DNA of 64,000 nt, from positions 153,284-217,283 of the forward strand of contig LBWX01000003.1 of the NCBI GenBank assembly GCA_000995065.1, in the 5' to 3' direction. Each line of letters opens with the position of its first letter. Position 1 is the first letter of the stretch. Below, piece after piece: positions 5,024 through 59,424 of the stretch. The notes below the pieces were generated by a model, which saw only the letters and a program-made list of their open reading frames with translations, was not told the DNA's origin and made no database searches. The position numbers were made by a program, and so were the translations under genes. The DNA is from a candidate division CPR2 bacterium GW2011_GWC2_39_35. GTDB taxonomy: Bacteria; Patescibacteriota; CPR2.

Positions 5024-5096
5024 ATTTCAAATTCCAAATGAAATCCAAATGATTAAATTTCAAATAAAAAGACTTTTGACATTTGGATTTTGTCAT
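5010..5096. terminator. perfect 16-bp inverted repeat (atgacaaaatccaaat / atttggattttgtcat) with ~55-nt AT-rich loop between PfkB kinase and acd genes
   Basis: arms at 5010-5025 and 5081-5096 are exact reverse complements. Confidence 0.4.
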
Positions 5097-5152
5097 TGAT
5101 TTGACATTTGATATTTGAGCTTTGGCATTAATTTTATTTTTCATTTTCCCTC

Positions 5153-10908: not shown

Positions 10909-13272
10909 TCATATGTGAAAGTTCTTCCTAACTTCAGACAATTCTCTTAAAAGCAGTTTTTCCTCGACAGAAGCAATCAGCCTTCTGGTAGATTCGATAA
11001 CATCGGGACTTACAGAAACTGAGGTAACGCCGTATTCTACTAGTTTTTCCGTAATTTCCGGGTAAACCGACGGAGCCTGGCCACAGATGGAAGCTGTTAC
11101 TCCTCGCTCCCTACAAACTTCGATAATTCTCTTTAAGGCAATTTGTACGGCTTCGTTTCTCTCGTCATATTCTTCAGCCACAACAGACGAATCTCTGTCT
11201 AAGCCCAAGATAAGCTGAGTTAGATCGTTAGAGCCAATCGAGATGCCGTCAATGCCGCAATCGATGAATTTATCAATGAGGAAGACCGTGGATGGCACTT
11301 CTACCATAATCCAAAGTTTAAAGTCCGGACCTCGCCTGAGACCCGCATCCTCAACTAATTTTTTAACTGCCATAAATTCATCAATTCTTCTTACAAATGG
11401 AATCATTAAATGAAGATTCGGATTGTTTTGGCGTACTTTTTTTATGGCTTCAAGTTCCATATTAAAGAGTTCCGGCTCTTTCATATACCTAAAGCAGCCT
11501 CGGTATCCAATCATTGGATTTTCTTCATGCGGTTCGTCCTCGCCGCCAGGAAGGTTTCGATACTCGTTTGTTTTAAAATCAGTAGCCCTGTAAACTACCG
11601 GTCGCGGATAAAAAGCCGACGCAATTGTCTCTAAGCCTTCAGCCAATTTGTCGATAAATTCCTGCTGCCTGCCTTCTTTATGGAATTTGCGCGGATGTTC
11701 TTTGATGTATTCCATAATGATAAACTCGGCCCTTAAAAGTCCAACGCCATCCACATTTCTCTTAGCCATTTCTTCCGCAAGTTCCGGTTCGCCAAGATTT
11801 AAATAAACTCTAGTTGCGGTAATCGGCTCGGACATGACAGCCGAAGCAGCGGATCCGGAAACGGTTGTCGCCTGCTTTGTTTCCACAGCTTCTTTAATAA
11901 GACCTTTATAAACCAAGCCGCGGGAACCATCCACAGTAACGGCATCATAAGCTTTTAGAGTTTCGGTCGCAGTTTCGGTGCCAACGACGCAAGGAATACC
12001 AAGCTCTCTGGAAACAATAGCCGCATGACAAGTTCTTCCACCGGCGTCGGTTGCAATCGCCGAAGCCCTTTTCATGGCCGGAACATAATCCGGCGTTGTC
12101 ATCTCGGTAACCAAAACATCACCTTCAAGGATTTTATCAATTTCATCTGGAGAGTGGATAATTTTGACCGGGCCACCACCCATACCGGCGGAAGCAGCCG
12201 AGCCTTTTAAGATAATTTCTTTTTCAGTTGTCGTTTCCGGAGTACCCGAAGTCTCTTCTGTTTTTGCCCCGGCATCACCCAAAGTAGTTACCGGCCTGGA
12301 CTGAACCATATATATTTTTCCCTTATAGACAGTGTATTCCGTATCCTGAGGCTTGCCGTAATGCTTTTCGATGTTTAAAGCAATTTGGGATAGCTGTTTG
12401 ATTTCGTCATCCGTTAGCTTTTGTTTATCCTGAAGATCGACCGGCACTGGCTGAGCCGCTTTCTGAAGAGCGCCCGGATCATCAGTATCAGAAGAACCAG
12501 ACTCTCGGTTTAACATCCAAGTTTGCTTGTGGATTTCTTTATTAGAAATTTCCAAAGTCTTTTTATCCACAAGGTATCTGTCCGGCGTTACCGCCCCAAG
12601 CACCACTACTTCTCCCAAACCATAAGCAGCTTCGATGGAAATATGATCGAGATCATTATTGGTTGGATCAATAGTAAACATAACGCCCGCTTTTTCGGCA
12701 TCAACCATTTCCTGAACCGGAACCGCGATTCCAACTTCAAGCTGACCAAAACCCTTATCTGACCTATAATAAATAGCTCTGGCTCCAAAAAGAGAAGCAT
12801 AGCATTTCTGTACCGCTTCTACTACCGCATCATCACCAAGAACATTTAAATAAGTCGATTGCTGGCCGGCAAATGAGGCATCAGCCAAATCTTCGGCGGT
12901 TGCCGAGCTTCTGACCGCCACGTAAAGCTTTTCCCTATCACCCTTTAACTTGTGATAATTTTCAATAATATCTTTTCGTAAGTCTTCCGGCATAGAAGAC
13001 TTAATGATAAGATCTTGGATTTTTTCCGCTCTGGCCTGAAGATCTTTAGAATCTTCAACGTCCAAACCCTCCAAGATGGTTTCGATCTTTTCTTTAAGAC
13101 CGGCCTTTTCTAAGAAATAAAAATAGGCTTGAGCAGTAACATTGTAGCCGTTAGGAACCGGAATGCCTGCCTTAAGCATCTCCCCCAAATTAGCCCCTTT
13201 TCCGCCAACGGTTGCGCCGTCGCCCTTGCCTACTTCGGAAAACCAAAGAATATTTTTTATTGCTTCAGTCAT
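10909..13272 (-). CDS. ppsA: phosphoenolpyruvate synthase (pyruvate, water dikinase)
   Basis: 787 aa; N-terminal GGKGANLGEM ATP-grasp motif, central phosphohistidine domain (GGRTCHAAIVSRELGIP), C-terminal PEP-utilizing TIM barrel. Confidence 0.85.
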   Translation of the reverse strand: MTEAIKNILWFSEVGKGDGATVGGKGANLGEMLKAGIPVPNGYNVTAQAYFYFLEKAGLKEKIETILEGLDVEDSKDLQARAEKIQDLIIKSSMPEDLRKDIIENYHKLKGDREKLYVAVRSSATAEDLADASFAGQQSTYLNVLGDDAVVEAVQKCYASLFGARAIYYRSDKGFGQLEVGIAVPVQEMVDAEKAGVMFTIDPTNNDLDHISIEAAYGLGEVVVLGAVTPDRYLVDKKTLEISNKEIHKQTWMLNRESGSSDTDDPGALQKAAQPVPVDLQDKQKLTDDEIKQLSQIALNIEKHYGKPQDTEYTVYKGKIYMVQSRPVTTLGDAGAKTEETSGTPETTTEKEIILKGSAASAGMGGGPVKIIHSPDEIDKILEGDVLVTEMTTPDYVPAMKRASAIATDAGGRTCHAAIVSRELGIPCVVGTETATETLKAYDAVTVDGSRGLVYKGLIKEAVETKQATTVSGSAASAVMSEPITATRVYLNLGEPELAEEMAKRNVDGVGLLRAEFIIMEYIKEHPRKFHKEGRQQEFIDKLAEGLETIASAFYPRPVVYRATDFKTNEYRNLPGGEDEPHEENPMIGYRGCFRYMKEPELFNMELEAIKKVRQNNPNLHLMIPFVRRIDEFMAVKKLVEDAGLRRGPDFKLWIMVEVPSTVFLIDKFIDCGIDGISIGSNDLTQLILGLDRDSSVVAEEYDERNEAVQIALKRIIEVCRERGVTASICGQAPSVYPEITEKLVEYGVTSVSVSPDVIESTRRLIASVEEKLLLRELSEVRKNFHI

Positions 13273-20714: not shown

Positions 20715-20717
20715 TTT

Positions 20718-21125
20718 TTATTTCTTCTCCATCTTCGGCGCGAACAGAACATATTCCCCATTATTAGCATTTGTAACTTCTACAACATAATAAGAACTAT
20801 CGGAAGGGTCTGTCGGAAAATCTTCCGTTGGCAAATAGCTGCTTGGAAAATTTGAGCTAGAGTCTTTTCCGTAAAAAACACCTGAATTGCCCTCTGCCTG
20901 TCCTTTAGTTAAACTACGACGACCATTCACAAATTTCCCATGCCTCGACTTATAAGTTTCAATGACGTTTTTTATCTTATCCAAATCGTCACTTCTCACT
21001 TTATTACGAGTATCAACCGCCACACCATTAAGCCTTATAGCAATGAGGGCAATAAAGAAAACACCAACTACCGTAACGAGCATTATTTTTGCAATTAAAT
21101 TATCTTTAGATAACTTCTGAAACAT
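20718..21125 (-). CDS. hypothetical protein with N-terminal transmembrane helix
   Basis: 135 aa; IMLVTVVGVFFIALIAI helix near N-terminus. Confidence 0.45.
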   Translation of the reverse strand: MFQKLSKDNLIAKIMLVTVVGVFFIALIAIRLNGVAVDTRNKVRSDDLDKIKNVIETYKSRHGKFVNGRRSLTKGQAEGNSGVFYGKDSSSNFPSSYLPTEDFPTDPSDSSYYVVEVTNANNGEYVLFAPKMEKK

Positions 21126-21211
21126 TTCTTCTCCTTAATTTTGAATTCTTTTCTTATTATAGAACATAAGTAAAAAAAGTATAACCCCTCAAATAATGTG
21201 GGTAATTATTA

Positions 21212-21251
21212 AATGACGGTTTTTATACGATCGTTTAATTTTCGTCATTTA
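21212..21251. promoter_or_regulatory. conserved 40-bp palindromic motif (copy 1)
   Basis: aatgacggtttttatacgatcgtttaattttcgtcatttaa. Confidence 0.5.
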
Positions 21252-21438
21252 AGAGATCGTTTTGTTGGTTTTTGGTGATTAAATGCGGGAAAACTATAGC
21301 CTCGAAAACTCTTTACAAATTTCCATTTTTCTGTTAAATTATTAGAGTTGAAAATAGGAAATAGAAGGTAGAAAACAGGAAATAATTAAGAATCAGCCTT
21401 CTATTTATTAGTCACTATTTCCTATTTACTTGACTTAT

Positions 21439-21515
21439 GGCCCCGTCGTCTAGTGGCCTAGGATATCAGGTTTTCATCCTGAAGATCGCGGGTTCGAATC
21501 CCGCCGGGGCTGCCA
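21439..21515 (+). tRNA. tRNA-Glu (anticodon TTC)
   Basis: 77 nt including CCA; acceptor stem GGCCCCG/CGGGGCT (one G-U), anticodon stem TCAGG/CCTGA with loop TTTTCAT, T-arm GCGGGTTCGAATCCCGC. Confidence 0.85.
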
Positions 21516-21558
21516 ATAGAAAAATCAAAGATTTTTACTGATAGCTTATAGCTATTAT

Positions 21559-21590
21559 CAAAATGGCTTTTTTAAAAAGCCATTTTGATT
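21559..21590. terminator. rho-independent terminator after tRNA-Glu (caaaatggcttttttaaaaagccattttg)
   Basis: 13-bp inverted repeat with A/T tracts on both sides (bidirectional). Confidence 0.55.
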
Positions 21591-21659
21591 TTGCGGATTT
21601 AATAGTCAGAGCAAATTTTAGCTTCATTTCGAGAAGCAATCCCTCTTACTCTACTTATT

Positions 21660-24404: not shown

Positions 24405-25058
24405 TTGCGCCTTATCCGCATTATGCTAAAATTATTAAAGTTAAACAGAGAAAATATGGCCGAATCAGAATTAATCCAAAAAATCGAAAAAGAAGTTTTT
24501 GAAATTGCCAACAAAAATGGTTGGGAATGGTTTTACAAGGTTCATATGAAACCGATGGTAAAAAGCGCTAACGAATTATTAAAGCTTTATCCGGAAGCCA
24601 ATAAAGAAATCGTAATTATTGCCGCCTGGCTTCATGACACTGCCAAAATTTACGCAAAAGATATTATCGAATTTGAAGAGATTCACAAAACCCATCATCT
24701 TGAAAGCGCAGAAGTCGCGAAAGATTTGTTATTAAAACACAAGGAACTTACAGACGAAAAAATTGAAGAAATATTAAGCTGCATTATAAGACATCGAAAC
24801 TCGAAAGATTATCCGGCTAAGACTTTAGAAGAAAAGATTGTCACCGTGGCCGATACCTTATCTCACTTTAGAGGCGCGATTTATCTTATTCATTTTAAAT
24901 TCTTTCCGGAACATAGCTTAGAACAGATGGCTCACGAAGCTTTAGCAAAATTAGACAGAGATTGGCGTGACCTTAAGCTCTTACCAGAAGCGCCAAAACT
25001 GGCCGAAACCGAATATCAAGTTCTAAAAAAGATGCTAGAGAGCTACCTCGAAGATTAA
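24405..25058 (+). CDS. HD-domain phosphohydrolase
   Basis: 217 aa; AAWLHDTAK HD motif. Confidence 0.7.
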   Translation: MRLIRIMLKLLKLNRENMAESELIQKIEKEVFEIANKNGWEWFYKVHMKPMVKSANELLKLYPEANKEIVIIAAWLHDTAKIYAKDIIEFEEIHKTHHLESAEVAKDLLLKHKELTDEKIEEILSCIIRHRNSKDYPAKTLEEKIVTVADTLSHFRGAIYLIHFKFFPEHSLEQMAHEALAKLDRDWRDLKLLPEAPKLAETEYQVLKKMLESYLED

Positions 25059-25070: not shown

Positions 25071-26195
25071 CTAGTGATAAATCCTTTGATTGTTAATGCC
25101 CAGGTTAGTTAAGACTTCATAACTAATTGTGTTTCTAGTTTTTGCAATATCGTTGGCACTGATAGAGATTTTCCCTTCGGTACCCAAAATTGTAACTTCA
25201 TCGCCTGTATTTATATTAACGCCATCCGTTATATCCACCATCATAATATTCATGCAAACATTTCCCACCACCGGGAATTTTTGGCTATTTATGATCACTT
25301 CGCCCTTATTTGACAAGAAACGGCTCACGCCATCTGAATATCCGATTGGTAAAATAGCAATCTTACTATTCCTTTTGGTTGTAAATGTCCCGCTATAGCC
25401 AATAGGCGTGTTTTTAGAAATATCTCTTATTTGGATAATTCTGGTCTTAAAAGATAAGGCTGGCTTAAGATCCACTTTGCTTTTATCAACATTGTCCGGA
25501 CAAATCCCATAAAGCATGATTCCGGGGCGAACCATATTAAAATGAGATTGGGGTAGGGAAATAGTAGCGGCACTGTTGGCCATATGGCAATACTTTAGAG
25601 AAATGGCATTTCTTTCTAACTCTACTATAACATTATTAAACTTTTGAATCTGATTCTTGGTAAACGCCTTATCCGAATCGGCGCTATCTGCCTGCGGACA
25701 ATGACTATAAATCCCCTCGATTTCGATGGCCTTTAAACTGTTTAGTTCTTTTGCAAAATCCAAAACTTTATCAATCGGCAACCCATACCAACTCATACCC
25801 GTATCCACTGCCAAATGGACTTTAGATTTCTTTTTTTGTTTTTCGGCTTCGTTGCCAAGGACTTTCGCAAAGTTTTTGCTATAAAGAGACAATGACAAAT
25901 CATACAAAATAGCTTGATCTATTCTATCCGAAGGCGTGTCATAAAGAACCAAAATAAGCCCTTTTATCCCTTCATTTCTAAGCCTAATGCCTTCTTCAAC
26001 CGTCGCTACCCCAAAAGCATCAATTCCTTCATTCTTACAAGCCTTGGCAACTTCAATAAGTCCATGACCATAGGCTTCGGCCTTAATAATGGGCATCACC
26101 TTAACACTCTTGTCGACCAAATTCACAATCTGTTTGATGTTGTGCTGGATAGCTCCCAAGTCAATTTCTACCCAACAATTATTTAATTTAACCAT
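25071..26195 (-). CDS. alr: alanine racemase
   Basis: 374 aa; PIIKAEAYGHG PLP-lysine motif. Confidence 0.85.
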   Translation of the reverse strand: MVKLNNCWVEIDLGAIQHNIKQIVNLVDKSVKVMPIIKAEAYGHGLIEVAKACKNEGIDAFGVATVEEGIRLRNEGIKGLILVLYDTPSDRIDQAILYDLSLSLYSKNFAKVLGNEAEKQKKKSKVHLAVDTGMSWYGLPIDKVLDFAKELNSLKAIEIEGIYSHCPQADSADSDKAFTKNQIQKFNNVIVELERNAISLKYCHMANSAATISLPQSHFNMVRPGIMLYGICPDNVDKSKVDLKPALSFKTRIIQIRDISKNTPIGYSGTFTTKRNSKIAILPIGYSDGVSRFLSNKGEVIINSQKFPVVGNVCMNIMMVDITDGVNINTGDEVTILGTEGKISISANDIAKTRNTISYEVLTNLGINNQRIYH

Positions 26196-26257
26196 GAAAG
26201 TATTTTACAACAAAAAAATCATACATAACACTTTAATACGGCCAGCGAGCAAAAGAC

Positions 26258-26815
26258 CTACTTATATTCTCTTTTCGGAAAAAAGCGGACGGTTTCTTTG
26301 GCCTCCCGGCTTTCTATTATCTCCGCATATTTGTAGGGAGCAGGAATGTTAAAAAGGGTTAAATCTGCCTTTAATACAGGGTTATACACAATAAGCGTGC
26401 CATAGTTAAATATCCTTCCCCAGAGGTTTTGACTAACCTTGACCGTTTCGATTCTCTCGGTAGAAAAAGCGGTTTCAACAATCCTTATAATTCCGTTTTC
26501 TTCGATTATCTCGTAGGGCATAATAATATACTCTAAGTTCGCCCACCATAAGACAATATAGGAGACAAAAAAAATGTTTATTATCTGAACAGTAAGCCCT
26601 CCTGCAATAAGGAGGATTTGCGGCGAAACAAATTGACTGACTTCGGATAAATAGGCATTAATAAGAAGAATAACTGCCATCGATACCAAACTAAGGACCA
26701 ATTCCAACATCAGTAAATTAAAGATAAGAATTACGATACTTTGCCTTAAGTTGTAGCTATAACTGCAAACAGGCGCATTAGTTTGGTTTTTGGGCTTTTG
26801 GCCAGTGGCTTTCAT
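26258..26815 (-). CDS. hypothetical membrane protein with bacterial PH-like (DUF304-type) C-terminal domain
   Basis: 185 aa; two N-terminal TM helices then soluble beta-rich domain. Confidence 0.45.
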   Translation of the reverse strand: MKATGQKPKNQTNAPVCSYSYNLRQSIVILIFNLLMLELVLSLVSMAVILLINAYLSEVSQFVSPQILLIAGGLTVQIINIFFVSYIVLWWANLEYIIMPYEIIEENGIIRIVETAFSTERIETVKVSQNLWGRIFNYGTLIVYNPVLKADLTLFNIPAPYKYAEIIESREAKETVRFFPKREYK

Positions 26816-26871
26816 GGCCTAACTATAGCAAAAATCCGGATAAAATAAAGATTTTCTGTTAACATTACTTT

Positions 26872-27369
26872 TCACTTTACCCCTTCGATTTTAAGCAACA
26901 TTTCTTTCCACCTCGTTTTTCCGCTCCAGCCGCCTAAGCTACCATCGCTTTTTAATACCCGATGACAAGGAATAACAACCGGAATGCGGTTTTTGGCCAT
27001 AGCGTTCCCCACAGCCCTAGCGCCATTTGGCTTGCCGCACATTATTGCTAGTTCTCTATAAGAAACCGTTATTCCGGCAGGAACTTTTCTTAAATTTTGG
27101 TAAATTTGTTTCTCTAGATCGGTGGCCCAATCCAAATCAATTTTGATGTCTAAAAAATCTGCTTTCTGTCCTTTAAAATAATTGGATAATTTATTGCAGA
27201 GCTCATTTCCAACATCTTTACTAAACGTAACCTCGCCAAATCTTTCATAAATCTGTGCCTCTAAATAACTTCTATTTTTCTCGGGAAATAAAAGACCAAC
27301 GAGCTTTTGATCTCGAAATAAAACCGCCCCGCCACCCCATTTTGTTTTATAAATGTTATAAACTGTCAC
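26872..27369 (-). CDS. ogt: methylated-DNA-protein-cysteine methyltransferase
   Basis: 165 aa; IPCHRV active-site motif. Confidence 0.85.
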   Translation of the reverse strand: MTVYNIYKTKWGGGAVLFRDQKLVGLLFPEKNRSYLEAQIYERFGEVTFSKDVGNELCNKLSNYFKGQKADFLDIKIDLDWATDLEKQIYQNLRKVPAGITVSYRELAIMCGKPNGARAVGNAMAKNRIPVVIPCHRVLKSDGSLGGWSGKTRWKEMLLKIEGVK

Positions 27370-27598
27370 TCTCAGAGATTAACATAATCTTGGCTTTTAC
27401 CAAAAAGATAACTCCAGGTAGAGTTCTTCAAACATATCCTTTTAAATCCGCCAAAAGTGTTTACCTAAGACAGTTTGAAACCAACATTCTACCTAAATAC
27501 CGCTTATGTCCTTTACAGCCAAGCGTTGAGGTGGTAAAATATTGTCCAAGTCTAGCACCTTTCACAAAATATTTCTCAAGCACACGATCGGAGGTAGT

Positions 27599-28132
27599 AT
27601 GTCGTCTCAAAAAGTTATTGGTATCATCGGATTCAATCCAACAGACAAGAAGATCGAAGAGAAGATCGCAACACAGGCCAGAAAAGCAAGTAGAGAACTC
27701 GGCCTATCCAGGAGCTTTAAAGCGATAATTGCACCAACAACTTCAGCTGAACAAATAGCCGAAGCTGTGCATGCAAGCGAAATCAGCTATGCCGATTACC
27801 TTGGCATCCCGCGTAAAATCAGCAAGATGGCTAAAGGGTTGCTCCAGAACGCTGGAAGAGTAAGCGACACAATGCTTGTGAGGGATATCATTAATCACCC
27901 GCACTTCGACGAACTTGCAATACTAGGGCATAACCTGCAAACTGCAATTAGCCTGCACGACAACAAGGATACCTTGTTTGTCGCTCCCAATATCAACGCC
28001 CTGATTGCAAGCATACTTGGACAGAATAATGGCGTGTTACATATGGCACACCGGCTCGTGCCCAAACCAGGCAGAATCACTGTCTTTAGAGCTACTGCTA
28101 ACGGACTATTGACGCCTATCAGCCTTGCATAG
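27599..28132 (+). CDS. hypothetical protein, compositionally atypical (GC ~47% vs ~37% flanks)
   Basis: 177 aa from ATG at 27599 preceded by GGAGG (ORF track gives 27542); no family recognised by eye. Confidence 0.5.
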   Translation: MSSQKVIGIIGFNPTDKKIEEKIATQARKASRELGLSRSFKAIIAPTTSAEQIAEAVHASEISYADYLGIPRKISKMAKGLLQNAGRVSDTMLVRDIINHPHFDELAILGHNLQTAISLHDNKDTLFVAPNINALIASILGQNNGVLHMAHRLVPKPGRITVFRATANGLLTPISLA

Positions 28133-28191
28133 TCAACTCTCTGTCTGATGTTCTTTGGTGCTTAGACTAGCAACATAATGTTTACCCCGCT

Positions 28192-28253
28192 GGGCAATGT
28201 GTTCCTTAAATACAAATCAACACGTATTTGTATACATTAAGGAACACACTGCC
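28192..28253. repeat. long imperfect palindrome / hairpin (26-bp stem, 3-nt bulge, 7-nt loop)
   Basis: gggcaatgtgttccttaaatacaaat ..caacacg.. atttgtatacattaaggaacacactgccc. Confidence 0.65.
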
Positions 28254-28275
28254 CGGCACCTAATCTTTAAGCAAC

Positions 28276-28297
28276 GCAAGAATTTCTTGCTTTTTTT
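28276..28297 (+). terminator. rho-independent terminator (gcaaga-att-tcttgc + T7)
   Basis: short GC-containing stem followed by ttttttt at 28291-28297. Confidence 0.5.
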
Positions 28298-28426
28298 ATT
28301 TACGGAGGACACTTAATGCCTTTAAGGGTCGCACCCTAAGAAGGGAACGACCCATTATGAACCCGGTCATAAACTTTTGAATTTTGACCTGTAATTTTGA
28401 CTTTCGATTTTTGAACTTTGAATTAT

Positions 28427-31426
28427 TTATACTTCCGTTAGCGTAAACGGACAGATTTCTTTATAGGCGCACCAGCCACATTCGCCGAATCCCGGGTTTG
28501 CCTCATAGTTATTTGCCTTAATACCGTCCACAACCCTTTTTATTTCGTCCATAACTTTGTTTATATCTTTCTCATTTCTTACCGATTCTCCCACAATTCC
28601 CTTATCAATAAAATCCAACGTTAATTTATCGGGTATCTTACCCTTAGTATTTAAATATGCGAGGGAATAGATGGATAGCTGGCGATTTTTTTTCGCTTTA
28701 TCATTCGCTTTTTCTTTAGACTCCACATCCGAAGTCTTAAAATCCCTGATTTCTACCATCTCCCGGCCTTCATAGATAGCGTCGTAGCGGCCCCGGATCT
28801 TAACATCTAAATCAGGAAGAGCTGCCATAAACCATTCCTCAAGTTTGGTAGGATTTCGCTTTAATTCTTCTTCTCTTTCGAAAAAATTCGCTAACGCCTG
28901 ACGCCCAAATTGAAACCGTTGCTCTTCGTGTTCTCTGGTTACAAATCCCTCTGGATTCCAATTTTCTTCAAACGCCCGCCAAACATCATCCAGATTTACC
29001 TTAAAACCGCCCATTTTCCGGGCAAAATATTCTTCAACCGCTTTATGGATAGCGCTGCCGTAAACCACGGCATGGAAAGTCTTAACCGGCACTTTTAAGA
29101 TATGCAAAAACTCAAATTTTTTAGGGCAAGACAGGTAGTCATCTATCTGATGAGGGCTTAAGGTAAGCTTCCTCTCCGTATAAAATTTCTTTGGAAGCGC
29201 AAAAACCTCTTTAGGCTTTTCAAACTTCCTTATTATTTCCATGTCGGACAATTTATATTTTGCGACATCGACTTCAGGAAGATTTAAAGATTCCAAAACA
29301 AATTGGGAAACTTTTCTTCTTCTGGCGCCACCGTAATCTTCGGCCGACGTTAGATAAAGCTCTTCTTTAGCCCTGGTCATCCCGACATAGTAAAGTCTTC
29401 TTTCTTCCTGGACATGCACATTTCTCTCTTCTCCCTCGGGCAGAGTTTCTTTTACCAGCTCATCCGGAATTTGGATCGGGTCGGACCGCCTATTCGTAGG
29501 GAAATGTCCCGCTACCGAGTTTACCAAGAAAACAATCTTAAACTCTAAACCTTTAGACTTATGAACGGTAAGAATGTTAACGGCCTCTAAATCCGGATCA
29601 ATCTCCGCCGTTGCCGGATCCTCGCCTGCTGCCATTAAGGCTTCGATGTGCGCTTTAAAATTGACCAAATATTTATCTTGAGACACATGCTCGAACTGCA
29701 TTACCCTTTCGAAAAATTTGGAAATATTGGAGACCTTTACCTGAGCCTCCACCACTTCTATCGGCGTTTTATCCTTGTTTCCTTTACCAAGCGCCGCATC
29801 TGCCTTCCCTAATAAGTCCTTTAAATAATCCGTATCTTTTAAAAAAGCATACAAAACCTGGCCCGTGGTGTCCTCCTTGGATAACTCCCGAAATTTTTCG
29901 AGATCCTTAAGAACCCTATCTACTTTTTCTCGAGGCATACTAAAAAGATTGTCTTTTAGTTCTTCGATCTCGTCCGCTTTTCTCATTGACCATTCCAGAG
30001 ACCTTCTTTTTATGCTGGCATATGAGTTAAGAGTTACCAAGTCGGAAACGGGAATCCCATAGATCTCGGAAGCTGCTAAGTGATAAAGAGAAATGGAGTC
30101 CAGGGGATCGACAATTGCTTTTACAAAATTGATCATAAGCCGTATCTCCGGCCGATCGTAAAGACCAGATGACCCATCGAATTTATAAGGAAGACCATAG
30201 CAGGTTAAAGCGCGCATAAAAGGCTCGGCACTCGAATTTTTGCGGACTAAAATAGCAAAATCGTTTAATTCATATCCCTTTTTTAGCTTTTCTTTTATAG
30301 TACCAGCCACTTTGTCAGCTTCGGAGGATAAAGAATCGCAATGAAAATGAGCCGGAATAATGCCGCTACCTTGAGCTTTTAGTTTCTTATCAATACCGTA
30401 TCTGGATTCTAAACGATCGGGGTCATTGTGTTTTACCAAGCGATAAGCGCCATCTAAGATGGGTTGAGTCGAACGATAATTCTGGGTAAGTATTATCTCT
30501 TTGGAGCCTGGATAATGTTTTTTAAAATCTAAAATGTTAGAAATAGCAGCGCCCCGAAAGCGATAAATGCTTTGGTCGTCATCTCCTACGACCGTAATAT
30601 TTCCATTTTCGCCGGCAAGCATCTTTACCAATTCGTTCTGGGCAAAGTTGGTATCCTGAAATTCATCCACTAGAATAAATTTAAACTGCTCTTTGTATTT
30701 TTTTAGGATTTTAGGATTATCCTTAAAAAGCTTAAGGGCAAGATTTATTTGATCGCCAAAATCGAGATAGCCGTTCTCTGCCATAAGCTCCTGATATCTT
30801 TTAAAAGCTTGAGCAATTTCCAGCTGATTTTCCCATTCTTTCTTGTCTTCTTCCAAGACTTCGGAAACCTTTTTGCTGCAAAAATCAACATACGCCTCCG
30901 GATCGATCATCTCGTCTTTGAGTTTAGAAAAGTAAGAGACCAAAGTGTCCACGTGCCTAACAGGACTCGAAAGCGGCATATAGTGCTTTAAGTCAAAAGC
31001 CATTAAGTTATCTTCGAAAAAGACAACTTGCTCCGGACGGGTTAGAACTTTAAAATTTGACGGAAGTCCCAAATCAAGCGCATTTTCTCTTATAATTTTA
31101 TCGCCAAAAGCATGAAAGGTAAGAATCCAAGTATCCACAAAACCGTATGGCACCAGTTTATCTACCCGCTCTTCCATCTCAGCCGCCGCTTTATCGGTAA
31201 AAGTTAAGGCCAAGATCTCCTCCGGCTTCGCTTTTTTTTCGGCAATAAGATAGGCGATGCGATGAGTAATAACACTCGTTTTGCCAGTACCGGCTCCCGC
31301 AATTATAAGAAGCGGTCCTTTAAGATGAAGCACAGCCTCTTTTTGCTCTTTATTAAGATTAGCGAGATCTAGGCTCGATTTCTTTGTTAACACATGAGTA
31401 TTATACGATAAAACATCAAATATCAA
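28427..31426 (-). CDS. ATP-dependent DNA helicase, UvrD/PcrA family, fused to C-terminal RecB/Cas4-like PD-(D/E)XK nuclease with Fe-S Cys cluster
   Basis: 999 aa; Walker A AGAGTGKT near N-terminus, UvrD helicase motifs, C-terminal CGWCAYKEICP cysteine cluster. Confidence 0.8.
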   Translation of the reverse strand: MIFDVLSYNTHVLTKKSSLDLANLNKEQKEAVLHLKGPLLIIAGAGTGKTSVITHRIAYLIAEKKAKPEEILALTFTDKAAAEMEERVDKLVPYGFVDTWILTFHAFGDKIIRENALDLGLPSNFKVLTRPEQVVFFEDNLMAFDLKHYMPLSSPVRHVDTLVSYFSKLKDEMIDPEAYVDFCSKKVSEVLEEDKKEWENQLEIAQAFKRYQELMAENGYLDFGDQINLALKLFKDNPKILKKYKEQFKFILVDEFQDTNFAQNELVKMLAGENGNITVVGDDDQSIYRFRGAAISNILDFKKHYPGSKEIILTQNYRSTQPILDGAYRLVKHNDPDRLESRYGIDKKLKAQGSGIIPAHFHCDSLSSEADKVAGTIKEKLKKGYELNDFAILVRKNSSAEPFMRALTCYGLPYKFDGSSGLYDRPEIRLMINFVKAIVDPLDSISLYHLAASEIYGIPVSDLVTLNSYASIKRRSLEWSMRKADEIEELKDNLFSMPREKVDRVLKDLEKFRELSKEDTTGQVLYAFLKDTDYLKDLLGKADAALGKGNKDKTPIEVVEAQVKVSNISKFFERVMQFEHVSQDKYLVNFKAHIEALMAAGEDPATAEIDPDLEAVNILTVHKSKGLEFKIVFLVNSVAGHFPTNRRSDPIQIPDELVKETLPEGEERNVHVQEERRLYYVGMTRAKEELYLTSAEDYGGARRRKVSQFVLESLNLPEVDVAKYKLSDMEIIRKFEKPKEVFALPKKFYTERKLTLSPHQIDDYLSCPKKFEFLHILKVPVKTFHAVVYGSAIHKAVEEYFARKMGGFKVNLDDVWRAFEENWNPEGFVTREHEEQRFQFGRQALANFFEREEELKRNPTKLEEWFMAALPDLDVKIRGRYDAIYEGREMVEIRDFKTSDVESKEKANDKAKKNRQLSIYSLAYLNTKGKIPDKLTLDFIDKGIVGESVRNEKDINKVMDEIKRVVDGIKANNYEANPGFGECGWCAYKEICPFTLTEV

Positions 31427-31629
31427 AACTCAAAGATCAAGGAACAAAATACAGATTAAAAGATTTAAAAATTTCTAATTTCTAATTGCTCTAATTTCTA
31501 ATCAATAACTAATACCAAAATGTCTAATTTATCACCCTCACTTTAACCCTCTCCATCTAAAGCAGAGGAATGTTTAGTCATTCTTGAATTGGGTATTTTT
31601 TAGGTCAATTAGGTCAATTAGAAATTTAA

Positions 31630-33777
31630 CTAGCTTGGTAATTTAAAAACTTTCTTACCAACTAAAACGTAAATATTTCCGCTAGCATCGGAAGTAAGAC
31701 TGGTGATCCCCTTAAAGGATTCCGAGGTCATTTGTTTTACAAAATTACCGCTTTTGTCAAAAACTAAAATTTTAGAGCTTACTTCATCAAAAATATAGAT
31801 ATTGCTTAAAGATTCGGAGGTATAAATAAGCTTTGGTTTTTCCATCTTAGGAGAGCCTTTTAATGAAAAATCCTGTTTCTTACCAGTACTAAATTTACTT
31901 ACCTGGCCATCATTTAATAAAACGTAGATGCTGCTGTCTATAGTTAAGGAAATTCCATCTCGAAGACTCAAATTCTCCTGGAAATAAGGAGTCGGCTTTG
32001 TAAAGCCATCAACTATTCTTTGATGCTTATAAATCTGACCGTCATCACCTAAAACATAAATATTTGAATAATAAGCTATCATGTCCTTCGCCTTATACCA
32101 TTCTCCTACTGGGAGTGATTGTCTTTTTATTTCTTTCCCCGAAAAACCATAAACCATTGGCTCAGCAGTCATAAACACAATTGTACCATCTTCTAAAATA
32201 TCGGCGCCTAGAGTATCGGTCGAAGAGTTATCTGTAAATACCACATCTTTGCTTTGAATAGCTACTTTGCCAACCCCAGCTTCAGAAATTAGATAAAAAT
32301 TTTTGCTGCCGTAAACAATCTTATCAAACTGCTTATCAAGAGCGAGCATCTCTTCAGGATTTACTTTAACAATGCCGTCTATTTGATCTAAGATATCTTG
32401 GAGTTTTTGTCTTAAGGTTTTGATCTCTTCGGAAAATTGATCCTTAAACTTAGAATTTTCTACTTTTTCGATAGCCTCTCTGGCTTTATCTAGGTCCGCT
32501 TTACCACCGTTTTTATCTCCTGCAATAATTTTCGTTAAAGCATCATTTTCTTTTGCGGCAGCATCGCTTAGATATACTTGATAGATTTCGTTATTTTCCT
32601 CAGGCTGCTTTTTTTCTTTCGACAAGAAATTTGACCCAATAAATAAAAATGCAGCAATCCCGACTCCGTAAATTCCAATCTTTAAGTAATCCTTTTTGAT
32701 GTATTTAAGACCGGGTAAAAATCTTTTAAAAGAGATGTTTTTCTTGCGCATTTTAACAGACATAGGGAATACGGACGCCTGATTAGAATTACGATTTGTC
32801 GTCCTATTTCTAGCCATATGCTCTCTTTTTGCTTTGGCTTTTTCAGTCGCCTTACCGGCAACTTTAGCAATTTTTATTTTTACGTGACCAAATCTTTCCT
32901 TTATATTCTTTCCCATTTTTAAGGCATCTTTGGATTTATGAGCCACTTTGTCGATAAGTGGCGACGCACTTGTAACCACCGATTCGGTAACGTTTTTTGG
33001 TTCGTCTAACCAAAATTCGTCCTGAAAATCCAAAGTGTCATTGGCTAAAGCCTCCGGATCAGTAATCTCTAAAACCATAAAAGAAAGTCTATTCTGAGAC
33101 TTTACATCTTCTAAAATATTATAAAATGTATTTACAGCTACCGAAGGCGTATGCTGAATGAGCTCATTTTTTAACTCTTCCTTTGAGATATTGTAGTTAA
33201 GACTTGGGGTAAAAAAGACTAATTTGTCTCCTCTATCTACCGAGCCACTCGCAATATTTACAAATGTCTTTAGGGGATGAAGCGCCCCTTTTGGCGATAG
33301 TCCTTCGGTGATCTGAATAAAATTCTTTTTCCTAAGTAGATGGGCTTGGGCTCCGCCAGTTTGGGTCACATGAAGCTCTTTTTCTCTTAAAACTGCAATA
33401 ACAGCACTTAACTTTCCAAGCCACGCAATTTTTCCATCTTCTGCTGCCTCAACTAAGGCCTCGTTCACTCTCCCTAAAGCGTATTCAAAACGGGGCAGCG
33501 CTTCTTGCTTATTGCTTTCATAATAGGCTTCTTTGACTGAATCCAAAACAATCTCGGCAATAACTTTCGAGCTTTCTGCATTTCCCAAGATTTCAATGAC
33601 GCCAAAAATACTGCCTTTATCCTTGTTTGCCTCTTTGTCCGGATGATATTCATAAGCATAAGCAAACCCAGGGGCATTTTTCTTGTGAGCCGATTGAATT
33701 TTTATCGTCCTTAAAATCAATTTTCTTTTCACTTGAATATTTGCCTTTATCTTCAAGTTATGATACACAAATAACAC
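31630..33777 (-). CDS. membrane protein with N-terminal PP2C/PPM-like (possibly degenerate) domain, single TM, C-terminal beta-propeller (NHL/YVTN-like repeats)
   Basis: 715 aa; PPM-like blocks GSIFGVIEILGNAESS and TQTGGAQAHLLRK, TM IGIYGVGIAAFLFIG, repeated IYVL..DG..K motifs at C-terminus. Confidence 0.5.
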   Translation of the reverse strand: MLFVYHNLKIKANIQVKRKLILRTIKIQSAHKKNAPGFAYAYEYHPDKEANKDKGSIFGVIEILGNAESSKVIAEIVLDSVKEAYYESNKQEALPRFEYALGRVNEALVEAAEDGKIAWLGKLSAVIAVLREKELHVTQTGGAQAHLLRKKNFIQITEGLSPKGALHPLKTFVNIASGSVDRGDKLVFFTPSLNYNISKEELKNELIQHTPSVAVNTFYNILEDVKSQNRLSFMVLEITDPEALANDTLDFQDEFWLDEPKNVTESVVTSASPLIDKVAHKSKDALKMGKNIKERFGHVKIKIAKVAGKATEKAKAKREHMARNRTTNRNSNQASVFPMSVKMRKKNISFKRFLPGLKYIKKDYLKIGIYGVGIAAFLFIGSNFLSKEKKQPEENNEIYQVYLSDAAAKENDALTKIIAGDKNGGKADLDKAREAIEKVENSKFKDQFSEEIKTLRQKLQDILDQIDGIVKVNPEEMLALDKQFDKIVYGSKNFYLISEAGVGKVAIQSKDVVFTDNSSTDTLGADILEDGTIVFMTAEPMVYGFSGKEIKRQSLPVGEWYKAKDMIAYYSNIYVLGDDGQIYKHQRIVDGFTKPTPYFQENLSLRDGISLTIDSSIYVLLNDGQVSKFSTGKKQDFSLKGSPKMEKPKLIYTSESLSNIYIFDEVSSKILVFDKSGNFVKQMTSESFKGITSLTSDASGNIYVLVGKKVFKLPS

Positions 33778-36364: not shown

Positions 36365-38446
36365 TTACCTTACCACTATCCCCGTGTTTCCAAACCAGCT
36401 CCACTTGGCCGCAAACGTATTAACATCAAAAGTTTTTGACGGATAACCATAACCAGAGTCATTTACCACAAAAGATGTCGGATTCTGAACCGTTCCGGTA
36501 AAGCCTTTTACAACCTGAACATGCATCGAGTTCACCGCCCTTATCGCTCGCCCGTTATTTTGCCACGTAACTTCGTAAGCCGGCCAAACGCCATTTACCC
36601 ACCATATAATAATCGGGTTTCCGTTGGCAATTTCCTGGGCAATTCCCTGAACTGTCCAACTTTGTTTTACTTCGACAGTCCGGTATTTAGACAAAGCCTT
36701 GGCTACCGGGTCCCAATGCGATCCATAACCCCAGCCCGGAGCTGTATTGCCGTCGATATCCCCCACAAAAGCGGCATTTGGGTCGCCCCAAGTAGCGTTA
36801 GCATCTCGCCAAGTTCCCGACCAAGTTGTCGGATCGTAACCCATCAGACCAACAAATTCTAGCTCGCCCACAGAAAGGCCCCGGTAGGAAAGTGCGTCTC
36901 TGGCAGCCGCCGCCATGCACGTATAAAGATGACTCTGCCTGTAAGAAGGAATGTTTAAAACAATAGATTGCTCCTTCGTTGTAAAAATTGCGCTAAATGC
37001 CTGAATTGAATCTAAACCATAAACTGCTTTTACGCCGGAACCAATAGATACCGCATAATTTTGACTGTATAAAAAACCACCATGCGAAAACACCATCGTA
37101 TTTCCATTCCAGCTAAAGCTTCCGTCTACTTTTGGCGTTAAAGCAAAACTGTCTTCGGCTGATTTATGATCCACCGCCTGATTAAAAGTAATTGAGATTT
37201 TAGTTCCGATGTCGACATTCCGAGCGCTATTTGCCGGATAAAAACCGGAGACAGTAACATAACCGATTGTAGTAAATGAATAAGAAAGACCGCTCTCAAA
37301 TAAGCTTTCATCGGCCGCCTTAGCCTCTTTAGAAATAGAAACAGTGTATTGGGTATTCTTTTCCAATGGGTTTTTGGGTAGAAACTTTAGAAGCCGATTC
37401 CCTTCCCAGCTAAAACCGCCATCCGCTTTCGGGGTCAAGCTAAAAGCTTTCTCCGTAGCTTCCTTATTCATGTCTTGTTTAAATTCGACTTGAATGTTGC
37501 TATTTGCCAAAACACCGCTACCGGTTGGCGAGTAAGAACTAACACCGGGCGCATCAATGGTTCTAAAAGAACTCTTACCTACTTCTTGTTTCTCGCTTAA
37601 AACACGAGTTTTTTTAGTATTATAATTATATACCGTAAGCGTCCTTAAAACCGTCAATGTATAATCTGTTCCTTTGGACAAATTTGACTTTGGCTTAAGG
37701 ATATATTTGAGGCCATCCTCCGCTACTTCTAGTTCTGCTGGCGGGCTTAATTCGAAAGAAAACTGAGCCAACTCATTATGAGACACATCTGTTAAGATAA
37801 CAATCTCCTGTTTTGGCAGTACCCCTTGAACACCGTTTGCTGGCTCTACAGCGGTAACTTTAGGTATGGGAGAAGTGAGAAAACTAAATAAATAATTCTC
37901 TTTTTTAACTCCGACAATATTTCTGATTTCTGTTAAAGACACTGTGTACCTTGTCTCCATTTCCGGGGTTTCTATCGGAATAAAACTTAAAGCACTTGAT
38001 CCGCTGTAAAGGTTAGTCTTAAAGTTCCAATTTCCTCCAAGCTCCGGACTGATCGAATATTTAAGATTTTCTTTACGAATAGGGCGATCAAAATTGATCA
38101 CTAATGGCTTGTCCTTAGTCACTTCTGTAACACCTAGAGCAGGTTCGCTTGGAAAAACTACCTTAGGTTGAGGCACTACAATACCAGCAACTAAGCCCGC
38201 AAACCCCAGAAAAAGCCCGATATTAATATATAATTTCACGTTAACCAAAAGATAAAGAAAAATACGAAGAAAATATTTAACGCGGTACAAAAGGCTAAAG
38301 TTGGCATCAAGCTCCGGCTTTTTAATCTGCTTTAACCAATTTAATAAAAGTAAAGCATTATAAATAACCATAAGAGACATAATAATAAGAAGAGAAATTT
38401 TTAGAAAGTTGGGGTTTAACAAAAATTTAAATAACTCTTTTAGCAT
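36365..38446 (-). CDS. exported protein with tandem Ig-like (SbsA-type) domains and C-terminal C39-like papain-fold cysteine peptidase domain
   Basis: 693 aa; N-terminal TM, repeated TPKADGGFSWEGN / TPKVDGSFSWNGN modules, C-terminal QSHLYTCMAAAARDAL ... HVQVVKG Cys/His arrangement. Confidence 0.55.
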   Translation of the reverse strand: MLKELFKFLLNPNFLKISLLIIMSLMVIYNALLLLNWLKQIKKPELDANFSLLYRVKYFLRIFLYLLVNVKLYINIGLFLGFAGLVAGIVVPQPKVVFPSEPALGVTEVTKDKPLVINFDRPIRKENLKYSISPELGGNWNFKTNLYSGSSALSFIPIETPEMETRYTVSLTEIRNIVGVKKENYLFSFLTSPIPKVTAVEPANGVQGVLPKQEIVILTDVSHNELAQFSFELSPPAELEVAEDGLKYILKPKSNLSKGTDYTLTVLRTLTVYNYNTKKTRVLSEKQEVGKSSFRTIDAPGVSSYSPTGSGVLANSNIQVEFKQDMNKEATEKAFSLTPKADGGFSWEGNRLLKFLPKNPLEKNTQYTVSISKEAKAADESLFESGLSYSFTTIGYVTVSGFYPANSARNVDIGTKISITFNQAVDHKSAEDSFALTPKVDGSFSWNGNTMVFSHGGFLYSQNYAVSIGSGVKAVYGLDSIQAFSAIFTTKEQSIVLNIPSYRQSHLYTCMAAAARDALSYRGLSVGELEFVGLMGYDPTTWSGTWRDANATWGDPNAAFVGDIDGNTAPGWGYGSHWDPVAKALSKYRTVEVKQSWTVQGIAQEIANGNPIIIWWVNGVWPAYEVTWQNNGRAIRAVNSMHVQVVKGFTGTVQNPTSFVVNDSGYGYPSKTFDVNTFAAKWSWFGNTGIVVR

Positions 38447-44980: not shown

Positions 44981-45002
44981 TGATTGCACTAATAATTCTA
45001 AT

Positions 45003-45031
45003 AAAAACCGCCCAGCAAAGGGCGGTTTTTA
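45003..45031. terminator. rho-independent terminator aaaaaccgccc-agcaaa-gggcggttttt
   Basis: 6-bp GC stem flanked by A5 and T5 tracts. Confidence 0.8.
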
Positions 45032-45094
45032 TTTGCATATCATAAAATAAATTAACCCAATTGCCACCCTTTTCTAAAAGCAATAGAAAGTATC

Positions 45095-45187
45095 TTTTTT
45101 CGTCATTCCCGTGAAAACGGGAATCCGGGAAAGCTTGGGAAGGAATGGGGCATCTGGATTCCCACCTCCGCGGGAATGACGAAAAAG
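45095..45187. repeat. compound palindromic REP/MITE-like element (outer 17-nt perfect inverted arms tttttcgtcattcccg / cgggaatgacgaaaaa with internal hairpins)
   Basis: direct reading; core gtcattcccg / cgggaatgac shared with second copy at 60923-60983. Confidence 0.65.
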
Positions 45188-45286
45188 TGGGTGGTTCAGA
45201 TTTAAGACAGTACAGATTTGAATTTAAGTTTAAGCACTTGATTTTTTTAACCGATAGTTTCATTATATATATAGGAGGTAATTATT

Positions 45287-45793: not shown

Positions 45794-46101
45794 CCAAAGT
45801 TTCTTTCCACCGAGTCTAATATATTATTTAAGACGCCGGCTTCTTTGGCTTTTTTAATAGACGAATAGGTTATTATATCTCCCTTGTTTAAAATCACATT
45901 ATCTCTTTTATCCAAAATAACTCTAGCTACCGGTCTTCCTACTGCCATATTAAGACGCCTGTCTTCTGTCTCCTTTTTTGCTTCCTCTTCTTTTTCTGTG
46001 GTAATCCTTGTTAAAAATTTAAAAAAACGTTCCCAGCCGTCCCTGGTACGTTCAGTAAACTCCTCTACCCTTTCTTCGATACTCGGCTTTCTTATTCTCA
46101 T
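45790..46101 (-). CDS. hypothetical small protein (Lys/Glu-rich N-half, possible PRC-barrel-like C-half)
   Basis: 103 aa ORF convergent with upstream gene. Confidence 0.4.
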   Translation of the reverse strand: MRIRKPSIEERVEEFTERTRDGWERFFKFLTRITTEKEEEAKKETEDRRLNMAVGRPVARVILDKRDNVILNKGDIITYSSIKKAKEAGVLNNILDSVERNFG

Positions 46102-46181
46102 ACTTTATTTATATCCTGTTAGAACCCGGGAACCATTATTTAAACATCCAAAATGATTATGAATATGGTAAAATAAACATT

Positions 46182-46577
46182 ATGGAGGGTATGCTCGCCA
46201 AAAGTTTAATATTGTCTCTTCTTAAATGGTGGTATTTTGAGTCGCCGAAACAATTTTTGACACTTGCCAAAATGATTGCCAGAAAAATAATGGATAGCCT
46301 TTCTATTTCGATTATTTTAAGGACATTCTTTAGCCCTTGGAAGAAAGTCACCTCTTATAAACATAATAATTCACTAGAAGAACGAGTAAGGGCATTGGAA
46401 GACAATGCTGTTTCGAGGCTCGTAGGAGTGGTTATGAGATCGGCAATCTTAATTCTGGCTGCTCTTTTTATAGTTTTTTACATAGTAACATTGATGCTTG
46501 GCTCGATTATTTGGATCATTTTTCCGACCTTGCCGATTGCTTTAGCATTTTATAGCCTGGGATTTATTATCTCATGA
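46182..46577 (+). CDS. hypothetical membrane protein, translationally coupled (ATGA overlap) to Clp-type ATPase gene
   Basis: 131 aa; C-terminal two TM helices; stop overlaps downstream start. Confidence 0.5.
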   Translation: MEGMLAKSLILSLLKWWYFESPKQFLTLAKMIARKIMDSLSISIILRTFFSPWKKVTSYKHNNSLEERVRALEDNAVSRLVGVVMRSAILILAALFIVFYIVTLMLGSIIWIIFPTLPIALAFYSLGFIIS

Positions 46578-49048: not shown

Positions 49049-49290
49049 TTAAAACATCAAAAGATTTGAATAACGAATTAAGAATAAAGAACAGAAATTC
49101 GGAATGTTTTGATATTTGAGATTTAATGATATTTCCGCTTGACTTTTAAATTTTAAACGATCCTAAAAAATTCGGTAGATAATTTCCAAATAATTTTTTT
49201 ATTTTTGAGCATGAAGGTTTTATTGACTTTAAATCTGCTTACTTTAAAATAGTTATATAGAGAATGCAAAGGCCTCGAGTATATATTGGG

Positions 49291-49328
49291 AATAGACCTG
49301 AGGCCGCCTGGTTTCAGGTCTATTTTTA
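49291..49328 (+). promoter_or_regulatory. terminator-like hairpin (aatagacctga..tcaggtctatt + T-run) 12 nt upstream of RBS aaggagg of next gene; possible attenuator
   Basis: 11-bp stem, GC-rich 12-nt loop, followed by ttttt then aaaaggaggagatATG. Confidence 0.35.
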
Positions 49329-49340
49329 AAAGGAGGAGAT

Positions 49341-49709
49341 ATGGCTTACTACAAATCAGTATTTACAAAATTATTCAGAGGTTTTTTTCTTGTAGGCACT
49401 TTTCATCTTCTTATTGCTTTAACTTATTTTGTTACCTTTCCGGTAAGCCAAGATTTTCTGGCAAATGCCGCATCGAGTATGGATTATGGCACTATCGATA
49501 ATTCCAATTTTGTATTCCTAATAAATTTTTTCATCCTTATTGCTAGTATCGGCCTTGCTATGCTTGCAAGCGTAACCCTAAAGCAGCTTGGATCGTCGAA
49601 AAATCAAATCAAAATCGCCCCACTTGTATTAGAACCGATAGAGATAGCTAAACCTCAAATTACAAAGGCCAAACAAACTCCAAAAAAGAAGATCATTATC
49701 CAGTTCTAG
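49341..49709 (+). CDS. small hypothetical membrane protein
   Basis: 122 aa; two hydrophobic helices. Confidence 0.45.
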   Translation: MAYYKSVFTKLFRGFFLVGTFHLLIALTYFVTFPVSQDFLANAASSMDYGTIDNSNFVFLINFFILIASIGLAMLASVTLKQLGSSKNQIKIAPLVLEPIEIAKPQITKAKQTPKKKIIIQF

Positions 49710-49844
49710 CTTCACGTATCTAGTATAAGGTATAAAGTATTAGGTATTTTTTAAATAACGTTTGATGATTTAATAATACCCTTATTTTCGAATAGTTATT
49801 TTCTTCCATACTTTTACCTAATGCCTTATACTAAATTCCCATTA

Positions 49845-58894: not shown

Positions 58895-58930
58895 AAATAA
58901 ATCTGGTTACTTTCATTATTTTTTTATTTA

Positions 58931-58995
58931 TACTCATGCCCAATCTCCCTCGCTATCTCTGACCACTAGCAAATCACGCACTATTTCTTCCATCA
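58931..58995. repeat. ~65-bp direct repeat copy A (degenerate duplicate of the 3' end of plsC); partner at 60280-60345
   Basis: tactcatgcccaatctc + cgctatctc + gcactatttcttc blocks shared with 60280-60345. Confidence 0.6.
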
Positions 58996-59209
58996 TTTAC
59001 TATTTATCCCATTATACCCTACTTACTCTAAATAATTAAATACAAATCCTTTTGCTAAATATTCTTAAAAAAAGGGGCAGTTCTCTCTTTAAATATTAAT
59101 CTCCTATTTTATTAATAACCAATCGCCTACCCACACAAATAACAAAAATAGCCTCCAAAATCCTGCAACATTTGACACCTCCCGAATCTCGCCAATCAAT
59201 TATTTTAGG

Positions 59210-59249
59210 ATGACGGATTTTCTACGATCGTGGTAATTACGTCATTTAA
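59210..59249. promoter_or_regulatory. conserved 40-bp palindromic motif TGACGG-N-TACGATCGT-N-CGTCATTTAA (second copy at 21212-21251)
   Basis: two near-identical occurrences in intergenic DNA, internal ACGATCGT palindrome flanked by TGACG/CGTCA inverted arms. Confidence 0.5.
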
Positions 59250-59424
59250 CAAGGCGCTCGCTTTATGAATTTTATCCTAATAACCGCTAAACTTTTTCTT
59301 GACGTTCCAATAGTTTAGGATTACAAGTTTAAAAACATATGTAATTATCGTAATATAATGACACGCCCATCTTTAAGAAGAGAAAAGCTATTTTGATAAG
59401 CAATGACTAACTAAAGGAGCTAAT

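Follow-up and report, generated by a model that had tools for sequence, protein, structure and literature searches.

The stretch of DNA analysed here, a window of 64 kb, belongs to a single groundwater species of candidate division CPR2, within the Candidate Phyla Radiation, and the same DNA is present in GCA_003500505.1, GCA_000995385.1 and Rifle aquifer assemblies. Within the window, a 1057-nt interval (27370-28426) separates ogt from a helicase-nuclease gene and carries a 177-aa open reading frame (ORF) on the plus strand for which no family could be recognised. The question that this locus raises is whether the ORF is a gene at all and, if it is, whether it was brought in from elsewhere, as supposed by the original prediction of a horizontally acquired cargo gene, or arose where it is now found. 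The explanation that we favour, and to which we would give a probability of roughly 0.6, is that it is a horizontally imported, monocistronic and species-restricted orphan gene, situated at a synteny breakpoint and forming a unit ended by a hairpin and a terminator.

The orphan gene and its neighbours

The two flanking genes, both on the minus strand, are what they had been taken to be, with ogt (26872-27369) matching PF01035 at 5e-28 and the helicase-nuclease gene (28427-31426) combining a UvrD helicase with a PD-(D/E)XK nuclease domain. All genes within 10 kb on either side belong to housekeeping functions and include those for phosphoglycerate kinase (PGK) and GAPDH, racemases, an ABC/FtsX-type transporter, an HD protein, a tRNA synthetase and a glycosyltransferase. 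The orphan ORF is indeed the sole plus-strand gene of its surroundings, although the minus-strand stretch that contains it spans 8.7 kb (25071-33777) and not the approximately 10 kb first estimated; the nearest plus-strand gene named outside it is the HD-domain gene (24405-25058).

The orphan gene (27599-28132, plus strand), which stands out by ORF length, codon periodicity and composition, begins with an ATG. A perfect Shine-Dalgarno GGAGG, which can be read directly in the sequence at 27590-27594, lies 4 nt before this ATG, and the strong ribosome-binding site claimed for the gene is therefore present; GGAGG and AGGAG motifs also stand upstream of many other genes in the window. The 229-nt spacer between the gene and the divergently oriented ogt contains, some 60 nt ahead of the ATG, a promoter-like site on the plus strand (TTTACA-17 nt-TAAAAT, 27512-27540) with an extended -10 TG and 10/12 matches to the consensus, which is a prediction of a kind that is not above background in this region (five sites found against 5.3 expected from shuffles). 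One NCBI record begins the protein at an alternative TTG (27542), which would lengthen it to 196 aa, but this start has no ribosome-binding site and is located directly 3' of the predicted -10 element.

Several properties of the ORF bear on its coding status. When the interval 27370-28426 was shuffled 2000 times with preservation of dinucleotides, the longest ORF in the six frames averaged 77 aa and reached at most 173 aa, so that 0/2000 shuffles attained the 177 aa (or 196 aa from the TTG) observed. Codon-position periodicity is strong, with 70% purine and 8.5% T at codon position 1, and the opposite strand of the ORF holds no competing ORF longer than 61 aa. As an RNA, the same segment is not unusually stable against shuffled controls (folding z -0.85), and a structured RNA was rejected as a reading after a search of Rfam gave no family at gathering scores and only generic miRNA-hairpin matches at lenient E-values. 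Because the ORF is non-random and periodic, while the RNA is neither unusually stable nor matched in Rfam, a protein-coding gene is much more likely than a structured RNA. Read together, these signals point to a real monocistronic protein-coding unit with a predicted promoter of the sigma-70 type.

The encoded protein would have a mass of 19.1 kDa and a pI of 9.8, with no cysteine, no tryptophan and no evident signal peptide. We take it to be soluble, and a small basic protein lacking cysteine suggests a putative cytoplasmic binding or accessory protein. Its AlphaFold2 model, predicted from the single sequence, is of low confidence (pLDDT 43.5).

Foreign composition and 3' structures of the unit

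With 46.6% G+C, the orphan ORF stands apart from both the window mean of 38.4% and the mean of the 44 other genes (38.7%, sd 3.3), and its GC3 of 0.483 compares with 0.364 (sd 0.043); both its GC and its GC3 are the highest among the 45 genes. The 120-nt sample from which an elevated G+C content had been proposed, at 47.5%, was thus representative of the full ORF, whereas the neighbouring genes, put by eye at about 36-38%, compute to 38-41%. The idea of a GC-elevated islet does not hold, as the elevation is limited to the ORF. Its two flanking spacers, at 37.6% and 38.1%, lie close to the genome mean and a little higher than the 34.3% of pooled intergenic DNA, and the whole interval comes to 42.3%. 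Moreover, GC alone is not decisive, because native DNA can be as rich: two native stretches of 534 nt reach 50.9% (36381-36914) and 49.3% (11771-12304), and some 2-3% of native 177-codon segments match the ORF in GC or GC3. Both of these GC-rich stretches lie inside large, compositionally native genes, the first of them at the 3' end of the gene for a 693-aa Big_5/Peptidase_C39_2 protein.

Codon usage and the dinucleotide signature are stronger signals of foreignness than GC, and they are the decisive ones. The native reference for all these comparisons is the set of 44 other genes of the 64-kb window. Scored under the window's own usage, the ORF has a synonymous-codon log-likelihood of -0.039 per codon, compared with 0.089 (sd 0.027) as the native mean; 0/533 native 177-codon segments score as low, and the orphan ORF is the only one of the 45 genes with a negative value. 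Where the host prefers ATT, TCT, GTT and GAT, the ORF prefers ATC, AGC, GTG and GAC, and it avoids TTA, ATT and GTT. Its dinucleotide signature is at a distance of 0.208 from that of the window, compared with 0.099 +/- 0.030 for native windows, of which 0.16% (about 1/624) lie further away. A bias linked to expression does not explain this codon usage, since the glycolytic genes PGK and GAPDH, which are also in the window, have codon usage typical of it. Composition is therefore not uniform across the locus, whichever of the two decisive measures is taken. The coding-strand GC skew of the ORF (-0.06) is like that of other plus-strand genes in the window.

Downstream of the ORF, two structures follow each other before the convergent helicase gene is reached. 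The long imperfect palindrome predicted there, as a hairpin with a 26-bp stem at 28192-28253, is real and somewhat larger than had been thought. Folding and an inverted-repeat search place it at 28189-28257, on both strands, 56 nt past the ORF stop, with 28 pairs (8+12+8), one mismatch, a bulge of 3 nt and a loop of 8 nt. Its folding energy is -38.9 kcal/mol (z -10.4) on the plus strand and -39.5 kcal/mol (z -7.1) on the other, and no T-run comes after it on either strand, so that it is not classed as a terminator. The canonical terminator placed at 28276-28297, on the other hand, was found as described on the plus strand: a G+C-containing stem-loop at 28276-28290 (GCAAGAATTTCTTGC) is followed by seven T at 28291-28297, and an A-rich tract lies upstream of the stem. 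On the minus strand its tail would be GTTGCTTA, a poor terminator tail. Since the T-run is on the plus strand only, we assign the terminator to the orphan gene and not to the helicase gene.

The helicase gene may have a 3' structure of its own. Its 133-nt 3' flank folds at -30.8 kcal/mol (z -3.6), and a G+C-rich stem-loop of 11 bp on the minus strand (28326-28353), about 75 nt after the helicase stop and with no T-run, is a candidate for the structure at the 3' end of the helicase mRNA. Three copies of TTTTGA(A/C)(T/C)TT(T/C)GA occur at 28375-28421, directly after the helicase stop codon (28427-28429), a motif which is not enriched window-wide (3 matches against 1.7 expected). Another spacer, between two minus-strand genes, holds an inverted repeat of similar kind (5014-5117) that is rich in CAAAT/TCAAA and has arms of 38 nt. 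Seven nt after a second perfect GGAGG (28305-28309) begins a 7-codon mini-ORF, MPLRVAP (28305-28340 with the GGAGG), which overlaps the stem-loop at 28326-28353; the combination is probably fortuitous.

Other non-coding parts of the window have features of their own. The spacer 44981-45286 contains an inverted repeat with 31-nt arms (45096-45186), and within it are two ATTCCC-N8-GGGAAT palindromes (45105-45124 and 45158-45177); the window as a whole has 3 matches to this pattern at no more than one mismatch, against 0.24 expected, and we take its consensus to be equal to the Neisseria dRS3 repeat. There are also four stretches of 0.8-1.4 kb with no ORF of at least 150 aa (58895-60263, 20715-21659, 49049-49844 and 45794-46573), which is unusually long for a compact CPR genome. 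These were covered by an Rfam scan at gathering scores, and the window's only tRNA, a tRNA-Glu at 21439-21515, lies inside the second of them.

Distribution of the protein and the locus in relatives

That the protein belongs to no recognisable family was borne out to an extreme degree across all protein and profile databases searched. A word-indexed search of 5.8 billion clusters returned the orphan protein only, and an exhaustive phmmer search of 1.84 billion representatives added to it a single match, to a 3048-aa vertebrate Ig-repeat protein (P0002), which was rejected as spurious since its score was summed over four repeat stretches. Nothing significant was found in Pfam (E<=10), PHROGs, NCBIfam, PADLOC or the sequences of the PDB, and no relative in phage genomes, plasmids or IMG/VR. 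Two weak leads were set aside. The phage T7 capsid assembly (scaffold) protein PF05396 gave an E-value of 0.0034 at 18.2 bits, below its gathering threshold of 27.1, and had no support from the PHROG or phage searches; a DsbA or thioredoxin fold was dropped, as there was no significant structural or profile match together with a CxxC active site.

About 24 contigs, drawn from independent assemblies of the one CPR2 species, carry the gene for the orphan protein, 100% identical and with the same neighbours on all of them, and the protein is found in 5 MAG protein records; the sole other member of its cluster differs from it only in the annotated start, which is the upstream TTG. The interval 27370-28426 was 100% identical in each of the seven loci fetched and thus offers no sequence variation. 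The gene recurs unchanged, between the same flanking sequences, in ENA, NCBI, JGI and Logan assemblies that are independent of one another, and is therefore no artefact of assembly.

Physical marks of transfer were looked for around the gene. No integrase, transposase, prophage gene or neighbouring cassette lies within 10 kb on either side, and no tRNA flanks the unit, the only tRNA in the window being 6 kb away. Terminal inverted repeats and significant flanking repeats are likewise absent around the unit. An 11-nt direct repeat pair, AACATAATNTT, was considered as a target-site duplication and rejected, being at chance level (by our estimate, such a pair is expected several times in 1.2 kb). 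The databases searched yielded no donor, and neither integrase or transposase, tRNA target nor target-site duplication accompanies the gene. The palindrome at 28189-28257 is single-copy in the 64-kb window, and exact-arm scans of IMG/VR and a metagenome collection gave no second palindromic copy; the one viral and 51 metagenome matches obtained were all chance matches to a single arm and give no indication of a repeat family in these collections.

Gene order in relatives gives a different kind of evidence. For this comparison we used contigs encoding homologues of the helicase, the nearest of which (66-68% identical) are denoted L008-L012, with further ones at 57% identity; at 66-68% helicase identity intergenic DNA is not alignable, and absence of the orphan gene from a relative is consistent with either gain here or loss there. 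A scan of a genome collection with the helicase alignment yielded, among the matches listed, distant phyla only (<=49% identity). The block upstream of the helicase gene (tRNA synthetase, 700-aa protein, helicase) is conserved in relatives, the class-I tRNA synthetase being kept in L009 and the approximately 700-aa protein adjoining the helicase in L009-L012, whereas the DNA after the helicase stop is different in every lineage. In L008, the helicase gene is followed by two tiny ORFs, then by csoR, HMA proteins and a Cu-ATPase, and then by ogt, so that a 4.7-kb cassette stands between helicase and ogt. L009 and L010 have the copper cassette and no ogt, L011 and L012, which likewise lack ogt at the locus, carry a convergent ORF of 171 aa free of Pfam domains and, after it, a 234-aa protein, and the relatives at 57% identity carry yet other genes. 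The 171-aa convergent ORF was examined as a positional homologue and rejected, as it has no similarity to the orphan protein.

Searches of the interval against the relatives' loci with blastn, tblastn and tblastx found no trace of it, and the loci contain no long G+C-rich hairpin after the helicase gene. A relic of the relatives' own genes was also sought in the interval, by tblastx against all loci and by tblastn of the Cu-cassette proteins against the window, and nothing was found. The ORF is thus not conserved at this position, where each relative has something else. A simple insertion between otherwise adjacent ogt and helicase genes, as first pictured, finds no support either, since the two are adjacent in no relative examined. 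Judged from gene order, the orphan gene sits at a synteny breakpoint and not at a clean insertion site.

The relatives' loci showed some further features. The copper-resistance cassette (csoR, HMA-DsbD_2, Cu-ATPase) occupies 3686-7911 in L008, 11429-15744 in L009 and 4141-8456 in L010, with CsoR-operator-like palindromes (ATACC...GGTAT) upstream of csoR, L008 has an additional separate small HMA gene, and the 64-kb window has no counterpart of the cassette. The ogt of L008 (7898-8398) is only 36-38% identical to that of the window (26872-27369), against 68% for the adjacent helicases; the two ogt genes may be non-orthologous, and ogt itself may be part of the variable content of the region. 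Some of the helicase homologues (P0026, P0028 and P0030) are 1353-1529 aa long and have Hint/intein Pfam domains (PF01079, PF14890), which suggests intein insertions in the helicase family of other lineages.

Origin of the gene and comparison with known systems

From the foreign composition of the gene and the variability of its locus between lineages, we infer import by horizontal transfer. The donor would be an unsampled phage, mobile element of another kind or bacterium, and the gene would have come to lie immediately beyond the 3' end of the helicase-nuclease gene, at a boundary prone to rearrangement and in convergent orientation with that gene. The hairpin and terminator, in tandem, would end the orphan transcript; they may protect the 3' end of its mRNA and could also keep the RNA polymerases of the two convergent genes out of each other's coding region. 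Of the original prediction of a horizontally acquired cargo gene, the foreign composition and the absence from relatives' loci stand, while a donor, a mark of mobility and a clean site of insertion are missing.

This shortage of physical marks speaks for a native gene, either one which has diverged beyond recognition from a resident gene or one born de novo where a rearrangement joined pieces of the host's own non-coding DNA. The gene coincides with a synteny breakpoint, a place at which scrambled sequence might be produced, its GC skew of -0.06 resembles that of other plus-strand genes in the window, and a minority of bacterial ORFans do arise in situ (PMC13012023, PMC12315717). A gene with such a history would nevertheless be expected to bear the mutational signature of its host, and the orphan gene, with a GC3 of 0.48 against 0.36, is an outlier in both codon usage and dinucleotides; its composition is not expected from divergence in situ or from birth out of spacer DNA, which in its native form averages 34% GC and is far from 46.6%. 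There is also no six-frame similarity to the relatives' genes at the locus, including those of the Cu cassette and iPGM, and we regard a native origin as unlikely. A more sceptical position is that the ORF does nothing, being a decaying remnant or an unexpressed frame, and that the conspicuous features of the interval are 3' end structures of the convergent helicase gene. Purifying selection is not demonstrable for a protein with neither homologues nor variation, its structural model is of low confidence, and on the helicase strand the hairpin is about as stable. All this would leave unexplained why the frame exceeds anything in 2000 shuffles and has strong codon-position periodicity, why a perfect GGAGG is placed at a workable distance from its ATG, and why its stop is followed by a correctly oriented terminator whose T-run, on the plus strand only, serves the ORF and not the helicase gene; a non-functional frame is in our opinion improbable.

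The order of elements, an ORF and then a long imperfect palindrome, resembles the architecture of a cassette, which together with the foreign composition raises the possibility that ORF and palindrome were captured as a cassette or are left over from a small mobile element, be it a cassette of the integron type, with an attC-like site, a palindromic element of the MITE/REP type or a phage moron. A self-contained unit of promoter, gene and terminator is the classic moron layout, and the sub-threshold match to the T7 capsid assembly protein is a faint hint in the same direction. Inspection did not bear out an integron cassette, as no RYYYAAC or GTTRRRY core sites bound the palindrome, no intI or array accompanies it, and a promoter-like site and a terminator are present, which would give the ORF a promoter of its own. 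For a palindromic element, the single copy in the window, the chance nature of the single-arm matches elsewhere and the lack of terminal inverted repeats flanking the unit are unfavourable, and for a phage gene there is no relative in PHROGs, phage genomes or IMG/VR, and no integrase, neighbouring cassette or prophage gene within 10 kb; a cassette or element relic accordingly has a slim chance of being the right answer. Far more speculative still is the combination of two ideas, that the 177-aa protein represents a new family or fold with a lineage-specific role and that the palindrome is a functional recombination or binding site capturing a single-gene, promoter-carrying cassette. We consider this very improbable; if it were true, the protein might act, for example, in episymbiont-host interaction or in phage defence or counter-defence, and the cassette would be a minimal mobile type not yet described.

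Horizontal import thus remains our preferred reading, and its significance is modest. It adds one well-documented example to the question of how bacterial orphan genes originate, in which a clearly foreign composition and the lack of any homologue among about 15 billion predicted proteins are combined with a reduced CPR genome and a defined synteny breakpoint, and if the protein is expressed it is a candidate new protein family. No current view is changed, because singleton orphan genes of atypical composition are common in bacterial genomes.

Among known systems, phage morons are autonomous promoter-gene-terminator units inserted between conserved genes, and the orphan gene is like them in being a solitary gene, predicted to have a promoter and terminator to itself, that differs in composition and is placed between unrelated genes; it differs in that its flanks are chromosomal housekeeping and repair genes instead of a prophage, and in that no phage homologue was found. 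With an integron gene cassette the unit shares an orphan ORF ahead of an imperfect palindrome some 70 bp long, but a cassette would have attC core sites, intI and an array in place of the apparent promoter and terminator seen here. Intrinsic terminators at convergent junctions are matched by the stem and seven T after the gene, with a further stable hairpin between the convergent genes, yet the 28-bp hairpin is much longer than typical terminator stems and has no T-run, and its role may be that of a stabiliser or roadblock.

The closest comparison is with the horizontally acquired ORFans of bacteria. It agrees with the published picture, in which import and not invention accounts for most ORFans and homologues are usually unfindable even in phage databases (Cortez et al., 2009, PMC2718499; uz-Zaman and Ochman, 2026, PMC13012023; reviewed in PMC12315717). 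The orphan gene is like these in being species-restricted, short, of atypical composition, located in a variable region and without a homologue even in phage databases. It is unlike them in being a singleton with no adjacent integrative-element genes, and the pangenome test used in E. coli is inapplicable to its host, an uncultivated CPR2 bacterium with no close sequenced relatives. Moreover, E. coli ORFans are usually AT-richer than their host, whereas the orphan gene is GC-richer. Imported orphan genes are common and well described, and the feature reported here is of this ordinary kind.
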